Source of the DNA: Myxococcota bacterium
Lineage (GTDB): Bacteria > Myxococcota_A > SURF-8
Reading direction: 5' to 3'
Assembly (NCBI GenBank): GCA_963674735.2
Contig: CAXXQS010000002.1
Location: 256,001 to 320,000, forward strand
Length of the DNA stretch: 64,000 nucleotides
In this document: positions 49,710 to 49,930 of the stretch, piece after piece
How positions within the stretch are numbered: the first letter of the stretch is position 1
Layout: every line of letters begins with the position of its first letter
Program-made: the position numbers and the translations under genes
Notes under the pieces: generated by a model
What the model was told of the DNA's origin: nothing
What the model saw: the letters and a program-made list of their open reading frames with translations, nothing else
Databases searched by the model: none

Positions 49710-49915
49710 CGCACCCTTCCTTGCCAATACGGGCTCATTTCGATTACAATGGCCCCTGCGACTGTTCGGGTTTTCCCGGACGAAACGGACGGCGGATCCG
49801 GCTACAAAACGGGCTCATCAGGCCCCAGGATGGGACGATCTCGCCGCCCACCACGGCCTCCCGCTTGCTACGGGAGGTCGTTTCATCTTATCATCACAAA
49901 CGATGACAGTCGCTT
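49710..49915 (-). ncRNA. IS110 bridge RNA (left-end non-coding region)
   Basis: Target loop TCCCATCCT...TTTGTAG and donor loop ACAGTCGCA...GGCAAG match the reconstructed target and donor sites; boundaries approximate. Confidence 0.85.
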
Positions 49916-49930
49916 GAAAGGGATAATACA

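Follow-up and report, generated by a model that had tools for sequence, protein, structure and literature searches.

The question raised by this locus is why an insertion sequence should carry, a few nucleotides inside its left end (LE), an inverted copy of the donor site that its own two ends form when they are joined in a circle. The element is an IS110-group insertion sequence found in a 64,000-nt stretch of DNA from a Myxococcota bacterium (assembly GCA_963674735.2, contig CAXXQS010000002.1, positions 256,001 to 320,000), which is called the window below and whose first letter is position 1. Our analysis indicates that the inverted copy is not a chance match and that it can be read in two repeat registers. 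Its function is a more tentative matter: possibly, it is a complement in cis of the left donor guide of the element's bridge RNA, that is, an anti-guide. The features needed for defining the motif are the following:

49906..49916, minus strand: motif CAAGCGACTGT, nt 15-25 of the LE, reverse complement of the junction donor ACAGTCG-CT-TG
48757..49930, minus strand: body of the IS110-group insertion sequence, 1174 bp, with identical ends and flanks in 8/8 genome copies
48755-48756 and 49931-49932, no strand: CT cores flanking the element, one per side
48772..49707, minus strand: recombinase gene, 311 aa, with DEDD RuvC-like and Tnp domains (open reading frame list, Pfam)

The donor was fixed from the copies of the element. 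A genome-wide search found eight of them with 100% identity, all having the same ends. The LE starts with TGTATTAT at 49930, the right end (RE) finishes with ACAGTCG at 48757, and CT is present on both sides in 8/8 copies, so that the flanks read GCCCATC-CT and CT-AC, the dinucleotide core being identical at the two ends. Because the ends are fixed by these 8/8 identical copies, the circle-junction donor is ACAGTCG-CT-TG. Relatives for comparing this site were taken from three sources: 10 loci from a search of genome contigs, matches at E ≤ 1e-40 in 10 of 101 related genomes, and the best 80 of 310 metagenome relatives (48-56% aa identity). The element ends in ACAGTCGCT at 77 of the 80 metagenome loci and likewise in all four close genome relatives, the exceptions being one cut contig and two divergent ends, while the LE starts with TGTA directly after CT in 66/66 loci with enough upstream DNA. 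We conclude from these aligned ends that the donor is common to the whole clade.

The plus strand at 49901-49919 reads CGATGACAGTCGCTTGAAA, as the original prediction stated, and the 11/11 match to the donor, core included, was borne out by the donor derived from the copy ends. The word ACAGTCGCTTG (plus strand, 49906-49916) is the sole exact copy on both strands of the window. When up to one mismatch was allowed, three matches were found in the window versus 1.0 expected, a number that was reached by 4/100 shuffles. By an arithmetic estimate, an exact 11-mer is expected approximately 5e-5 times in the 223-nt LE. The motif does lie inside the LE, at a distance of 14 nt and not of the ~15 bp given previously. 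The inverted repeat that had been proposed between the motif and the right end was recovered by the repeat search (I4; arms 48755-48768 and 49901-49914, 14 nt, 93% complementary). Counting CTTG/CAAG, this repeat, referred to as A, extends to 15/16 complementary positions around a 12-nt spacer, TATTATCCCTTT, with the -10 box of a predicted promoter inside.

The view that the copy is not symmetric about the core holds for repeat A, but it does not hold for a second register that had been overlooked, in which the motif pairs with the stop-codon/-35 segment TCGCTTGA. This core-symmetric repeat B (I3; 48763-48779 and 49910-49926, 17 nt, 82%) has its symmetry centre between position -1 and the core C, which is also the centre of the short subterminal inverted repeat (STIR) GATAA/TTATC. 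The arms of these repeats are listed below:

49901..49916, minus strand: LE arm of repeat A, CAAGCGACTGTCATCG, 15/16 complementary to the RE end, the core and TG
48755..48768, minus strand: RE arm of repeat A, CGATAACAGTCG plus core CT (left donor half), from repeat I4
49910..49917, minus strand: LE outer arm of repeat B, TCAAGCGA, +15..+22 from the core C
48772..48779, minus strand: RE outer arm of repeat B, TCGCTTGA, -23..-16, overlapping the 3' end of the gene (last codons and TGA stop) as well as the -35 box
49922..49926, minus strand: LE arm of the short STIR, TTATC, +6..+10
48763..48767, minus strand: RE arm of the short STIR, GATAA, -11..-7

The word TCGCTTG occurs twice in the RE and junction, across the core and at the stop codon/-35 box (48779..48772), and the motif in the LE mirrors both occurrences. 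Thus, on sequence evidence, the feature is real and non-random, and it fits two registers, being a copy of the donor in A and the outer arm of a core-symmetric repeat in B.

The motif was kept in close homologues, which was the check suggested for it. The first 26 nt of the LE are identical to those of the window at 23-24/26 positions in G001 (59% aa identity) and G004 (57%), two genomes of the same host family, while the next 26 nt match at 5-7/26 positions, i.e., at chance level. Among the LEs L001, L021 and L022, nt 1-26 agree at 23-24/26 positions and the following stretch at 5-7/26. The conserved block of the LE stops where the complement of the left donor and its guide stops.

An 8-nt version of the motif, CARGCGAY, is more widespread. 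It occurs at offset 14, or at offset 9 in one subclade (L065, L072, L078), in 19/50 LE clusters, whereas ~1.3 would be expected at equal base frequencies. Where it varies, the change is in nearly every case A>G or C>T on the RNA-sense strand. L055 (GTGACTGTT, LE nt 10-18) and L124 (GCAACTGTC, nt 11-19), which belong to other well-supported clades of the tree, also contain the left donor in inverted form. These copies stand directly after the -10 box, and their offset differs from that of the motif in the window. In L124, a change at RE position -8 is matched by one in the base opposite (G with C). Meanwhile, no general enrichment of complements to the own donor was observed in the LEs of 24 IS110 elements, most of them with other donors and many sharing a left donor: the best exact 9-mer match was 6.12 for own and 6.03 for cross pairs, and the local score was 5.12 versus 4.84. 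Only L001 (8.0) and L024 (7.5) exceeded nearly all of the 240 cross pairs. We conclude from these comparisons that the feature is lineage-restricted and recurrent and is not a rule of the family.

Two observations on these relatives stand by themselves. The only clear case outside the clade is that of L024/L032 (G052), whose left donor is CACGATCG: a near-complement of the own donor with one extra base, GCGATC(C)GTG, lies at LE nt 7-18 just after a -10-like box, and the local score of L024 (7.5) compares with at most 6.5 in 239/240 cross pairs. In L009, a more distant element (43% aa identity), the own LE follows directly after the RE downstream of the recombinase gene, giving a natural RE-LE junction that is due to a tandem copy or to the assembly of a circle.

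The place of the motif in the RNA depends on the junction promoter and on the guides, which are located as follows:

48770..48775, minus strand: -35 box TTGACA of the junction promoter, 17 bp from TATTAT after RE-LE joining
49923..49928, minus strand: -10 box TATTAT, hexamer from the promoter scan
49827..49834, minus strand: left target guide CCCATCCT, equal to the flank CCCATC-CT
49802..49805, minus strand: right target guide GTAG, complement of CT-AC
49758..49765, minus strand: left donor guide ACAGUCGC in the donor-binding loop, identical to the RE end
49720..49723, minus strand: right donor guide CAAG, an invariant alignment block that complements the donor core T plus TG

The 311-aa recombinase contains PF01548 (DEDD RuvC-like domain, E=3e-22) and PF02371 (Tnp domain, E=8e-19), both passing the curated cut-offs of Pfam. 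The LE is long and non-coding (223 nt, 49930..49708) and lies upstream of the gene, while the RE covers only 15 nt past the stop codon. A consensus of 48 LE representatives folds into two stem-loops with internal loops, in which 14/27 pairs show compensatory changes. The first loop, with CCCATCCT and GTAG, matches the target GCCCATC-CT-AC, and the second one, with ACAGUCGC and CAAG, matches the donor ACAGTCG-CT-TG. The target guide tracks the flank: six flank nucleotides plus the core C recur in the loop in 35/50 distinct flank/guide pairs of the clade. The left donor guide is invariant at 7/8 positions, and its last C is replaced in 5/48 rows of the aligned LEs. On every feature tested, we conclude that the element belongs to the IS110 group and is a bridge-RNA element as judged by its sequence. 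No further IS110 elements were found in this genome, and an Rfam scan of 48600-50100 at E ≤ 1 gave no bridge-RNA family, only chance matches of microRNAs and small RNAs on the palindromes flanking the element.

Once the ends are joined, TTGACA of the RE and TATTAT of the LE, 17 bp apart, form a predicted promoter of the sigma-70 type. Such a junction promoter was described for IS621 (Durrant 2024; Hiraizumi 2024), where the bridge RNA starts from it and covers ~177 nt of the 191-bp LE (Durrant 2024); here and below, the cited papers are used as far as their available text goes. Because of this promoter geometry and of the IS621 precedent, the RNA would be expected to start ~15 nt into the LE, at the motif. 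The predicted start lies ~7 nt past the -10 box, at 49915-49916, and gives a putative 5' end of approximately AAGCGACUGU, in line with the earlier suggestion that the motif stands near the 5' end of the transcript.

The reading that we favour, though only tentatively, is that of a cis anti-guide. According to it, the motif would work by base pairing and not as a protein site. It would make up the first transcribed bases of the RNA from the circle-junction promoter, and this 5' segment would fold back onto the left donor guide ACAGUCGC through 8 bp. The guide would then stay closed until displaced by the recombinase, by RNA processing or by donor DNA, and donor capture would be damped or timed as a consequence. 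We infer the start of transcription at the motif, the pairing in the cell and the effect on recombination, and each of them should be taken as a possibility.

The 8-bp pairing proposed previously was reproduced by RNA folding. The minimum-energy structure calculated with ViennaRNA pairs GCGACUGU with ACAGUCGC (49765..49758), the predicted minimum free energy being -89.6 kcal/mol with the 5' segment and -75.5 kcal/mol without it. The mean probability that the guide bases pair with the first 20 nt was 0.93. Several other results point in the same direction, namely the exact complementarity of the motif to the guide and donor, the -10 box ending 7 nt ahead of the A of CAAG in the motif, the variants A>G and C>T of the 8-mer, which keep G-U pairing, and the end of the conserved block at the end of the complement. 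Exact guide complements upstream in the LE were found in 4/48 representatives, whereas permuted words gave a mean of 0.20 and reached 4 in 5/300 cases.

Meanwhile, a number of results weigh against an anti-guide. The predicted pairing of the guide falls to 0.46 in G004 and to 0.00 in G001, and in most relatives naive folding finds some partner for the guide in any case. Beyond the 8 bp, the flank of the motif in this element and in G004 fits the RE (CGATA/CATCG) and not the flank of the guide, and the third position of the motif could pair with the base after the guide in 14/20 cases versus 12.6 expected, which is not above the chance level. A role in the RNA would not explain the copies in L055 and L124, since these precede the predicted start. 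Finally, the sister element G008 (62% aa identity, support 95/89) has only a degenerate 6/8 version. Because G008 has reached eight copies without a good copy of the motif, the latter is dispensable for spread.

Some further structures of the bridge RNA should be noted. In L070 and L095, and also in L060 and L074, a 5' stem-loop at LE nt ~52-95 pairs GCGACUGU... with ...ACAGUCGC, and it thus holds a second copy of the donor guide together with its complement. In the L070 group, GCGACTGT at nt 62 is paired with a second ACAGTCGC in this stem-loop, and in L060 and L074 the two strands of the stem show joint changes (GCGACUCU/CAGAGUCGC). At the base of the donor loop, the stem pairs YCC with GGR of the sequence GGAAGGG just 5' of the start codon (in the window ~49768-49770 with 49714-49716; alignment columns 250-252 and 305-307); CG was found in 26 and UA in 21 rows, which makes 21 double changes. 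Because YCC pairs with GGR there, the ribosome-binding site of the recombinase should be hidden by the folding of the donor loop. A GUUCGGG-CCCGAAC pairing beside the guide, considered for many relatives, was not supported, since the variable C/U of YCCGAAC covaries with GGR of the ribosome-binding site.

Promoter-like sites numbered five in the region versus 0.4 expected. Two of them, on the plus strand at 49865-49894 (9/12) and 49721-49750 (10/12), are antisense to the bridge RNA. A predicted RNA from the former would start at ~49901, run outward through the motif and then into a REP hairpin outside the element, and would open with the donor sequence as RNA.

The inverted copy may also be explained at the level of DNA or of a longer transcript. 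After circularisation, the LE arm could pair with the RE end, core and TG on the top strand, be it in single-stranded DNA or in a read-through transcript, which we regard as unlikely. In the resulting hairpin (-12..+3 paired with +16..+31), the stem would contain the core and the loop the -10 box. Such a structure could restore the donor duplex in a single-stranded top-strand circle, or it could stop or process transcripts running round the circle. With its 15/16 complementarity and 12-nt spacer, the hairpin of repeat A alone has a calculated energy of -21.8 kcal/mol, and the whole junction reaches -28.6 kcal/mol, whereas shuffles gave -21.2 ± 3.3 and reached this value in 2/200 cases. The RE-LE duplexes of L022 (-26.3), L001 (-24.4), L021 (-21.7) and L055 (-21.5) are far below the clade mean of -11.7 kcal/mol. 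However, over the whole clade the own RE/LE duplexes are no stronger than the shuffled ones (-11.67 versus -11.48, the observed value being reached by 1077/5000 permutations), and the 24 IS110 elements showed no general enrichment either. The offsets of nt 10 and 11 in L055 and L124 would be compatible with a hairpin, but not with a protein site at a fixed place or with the 5' end of an RNA. Two of the three repeat-A mismatches, those of G001 and G004, are G-T on the top strand, but the mismatch of the window's own repeat is A-C. Excision of the top strand has been reported, and for the joint of left donor and right target a single-stranded top-strand donor was ~20-fold poorer than a duplex one (Sun et al. 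2025, preprint), this being the joint that needs the strand which the LE arm would supply; the single-stranded circle, however, comes from this one preprint, on another element. A classical terminator is a G+C-rich hairpin with a short loop and a run of U after it; the -21.8 kcal/mol hairpin of the joined junction, with its 12-nt loop and the tail UUUGUGAU, may not be one. A combined form of this explanation, in which the LE is a built-in second donor strand, appears quite improbable to us: nt 15-30 would fold on the RE end, core and TG and rebuild a hairpin donor if the circle is single-stranded, supplying the strand needed by the left donor guide; such arms would have arisen more than once (this lineage, L055, L124), and the same arm, when transcribed, would be the anti-guide.

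Repeat B leads to another explanation, also a doubtful one, in which the motif belongs to an extended bipartite STIR on duplex DNA. The 8-mer would be the core-symmetric LE partner of TCGCTTGA, a weak counterpart of the repeat known from the IS1111 group, read at the junction by a recombinase dimer or a host protein, and the donor match would arise because TCGCTTG stands twice in the RE and junction. The symmetry centre shared with GATAA/TTATC agrees with this, as does the offset of the 8-mer, fixed at 14 in most clusters that have it, and subterminal repeats are known in the sister group (Siddiquee 2024; Durrant 2024). Among 63 distinct RE/LE pairs, the short STIR covaries clearly (own 3.94 versus shuffled 3.15 Watson-Crick pairs, 0/2000 permutations), the stretch between the inner and outer blocks shows no excess of own pairs (849/2000), and the outer block (-17..-24 with +16..+23) gives 3.60 versus 3.28 (9/2000) in a permutation test that ignores shared ancestry. 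An extended STIR, however, explains neither the extension CTGT(CATCG), a mirror of the left donor kept in three lineages, nor the subclade with offset 9 and the copies in L055 and L124; the symmetric register extends over no more than 8 bp here or in G001/G004, and a 22-bp donor was enough for IS621 with the RNA in trans (Durrant 2024). The repeat could also be a neutral by-product, which is not a likely origin in our opinion: a short quasi-palindrome (GTCGCTTG/CAAGCGAC) would have grown through template-switch correction in the course of replication, or else the block would be kept only for abutting the -10 box and the start site, without any role of its own. Quasi-palindrome correction is an established mutational process. 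The repeat is sporadic, being strong in just 4/64 distinct clade elements, the sister element, which still reached eight copies, has none or a degenerate one, and other IS110 elements show no general trend. Neutrality fits less well, however, with 23-24/26 identities through nt 26 at 57-59% recombinase identity, with the abrupt drop exactly at the end of the complement, and with inverted left-donor copies recurring in three separate supported clades. Very unlikely, finally, is a decoy or operator on duplex DNA, where the complex of recombinase and bridge RNA would find, in the inverted copy of the integrated element, a complete match to its guides (ACAGTCGC plus CTTG) over the transcription start, so that the own transcript is repressed or complexes are soaked up, with occasional inversion or deletion involving the palindromic targets. 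Every base read by both donor guides is present in it, and it overlaps with the predicted start; the integrated state also has TGGGCA-18-TATTAT, which resembles a hybrid promoter. As the inverted copy lacks the ATA/TAT STIR of the true donor, it may be bound without being cut. The copies in L055 and L124, though, have no CT core and are thus no donor mimics. The use of the motif as a second donor site, which had also been proposed, found no support in the genome: both expected joint words occur 0 times, five extra 11-mer matches (one ACAGTCGCTTG, two ACAGTCGCTAC and two GCCCATCCTTG) are all in unrelated sequence, and all eight copies have the same LE orientation. A 9-mer count for pseudo-donor use gave 43 matches versus 43 in the control, and Logan contigs of three runs, which cannot show rare forms, contained no inversion, alternative joints or variant letters on the element.

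The subterminal inverted repeat (sTIR) of the IS1111 group reportedly goes back to work by Partridge and Hall in 2003. It consists of near-perfect 11-13-bp repeats just inside the ends, with extensions of 7 bp on the left and 3 bp on the right (Siddiquee et al. 2024). The repeat studied here is likewise near-perfect (14 nt, 93%; 15/16 when extended) in an element with a DEDD recombinase, and its arms are ~10-12 bp apart at the circle junction. In contrast to the sTIR, its extensions are 14 and 0 bp and its RE arm is the donor half-site plus the core; moreover, the guide RNA of IS1111 elements is downstream of the gene, whereas here it is upstream, only 15 nt being left downstream. Going by position and arm content, we conclude that the motif is not an IS1111-type sTIR. 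Nor is it the short STIR of the IS110 group, which measures 2-3 bp and directly flanks the programmable donor (Durrant et al. 2024). Both are RE-LE inverted repeats around the donor, and the ATA...TAT of the short STIR is present in this element as GATAA...TTATC, covarying in the clade. The motif, however, is 5 nt further in and 8-16 nt long, its better register copies the donor and not the flanks, and the short STIR itself sits beside it.

The bridge RNA of IS621 resembles the predicted one in its 5' region, target-binding loop and donor-binding loop, in the matching guides, in the junction promoter and in the CT core (Durrant 2024; Hiraizumi 2024, 2026). The two differ in that the available descriptions of IS621 give no complement of the donor guide at the 5' end of the RNA, and in the length of the LE, 223 nt here versus 191. 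ISPpu9 is likewise an IS110-group element inserted in REP (repetitive extragenic palindromic) sequences and has a conserved A box at the LE terminus, an inverted repeat needed for circle formation; an antisense RNA and control of the recombinase at the RNA level were described for it (NAR 2025). The A-box repeat, however, resembles the target palindrome (GCCCnnnnGGGC) and not the donor, and its core is AG. In the text available from the literature searched, neither an inverted donor copy in the LE nor a 5' anti-guide was found, although figures and supplements (Durrant Extended Data Fig. 10, tables) may hold STIR detail.

The surroundings of the element in its integrated state are formed by the same palindrome at all copies:

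49933..49954, no strand: REP-like palindrome with the element inserted into its 3' side, inverted repeat I18, the same flank being found at 8 copies

The insertion site reads GATGGGCAACAAGTTGCCCATC-CT-element-CT-AC within such a palindrome in 8/8 copies. An intact 11-nt copy of the target, GCCCATCCTAC, is present at 49995-50005 (plus strand) in a neighbouring REP palindrome, ~60 bp outside the LE and in the orientation opposite to the element; this word has 16 exact copies in the genome. On the minus strand of 49923-49954, the REP hairpin and the CTTGTATTAT that comes after it have a terminator-like score, and TGGGCA-18-TATTAT scores as a hybrid promoter (9/12). Read-in transcription may thus stop at the LE boundary, where a weak putative promoter may share the -10 box of the junction promoter.

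Bridge recombinases are under development as programmable tools for genome editing, and their natural regulation, including the balance between excision and insertion, is poorly known. If the repeat is an extended STIR or a neutral by-product, it would mean that some end repeats of the IS110 group exceed the 2-3 bp described and that such repeats can pass for guide-related sequence. A fold-back arm that makes a single-stranded circle a usable donor, if true, would bear on the dispute between cut-out and copy-out. Should the anti-guide reading be true, a natural 5' segment closing the donor guide would offer a ready-made way of gating bridge RNAs.

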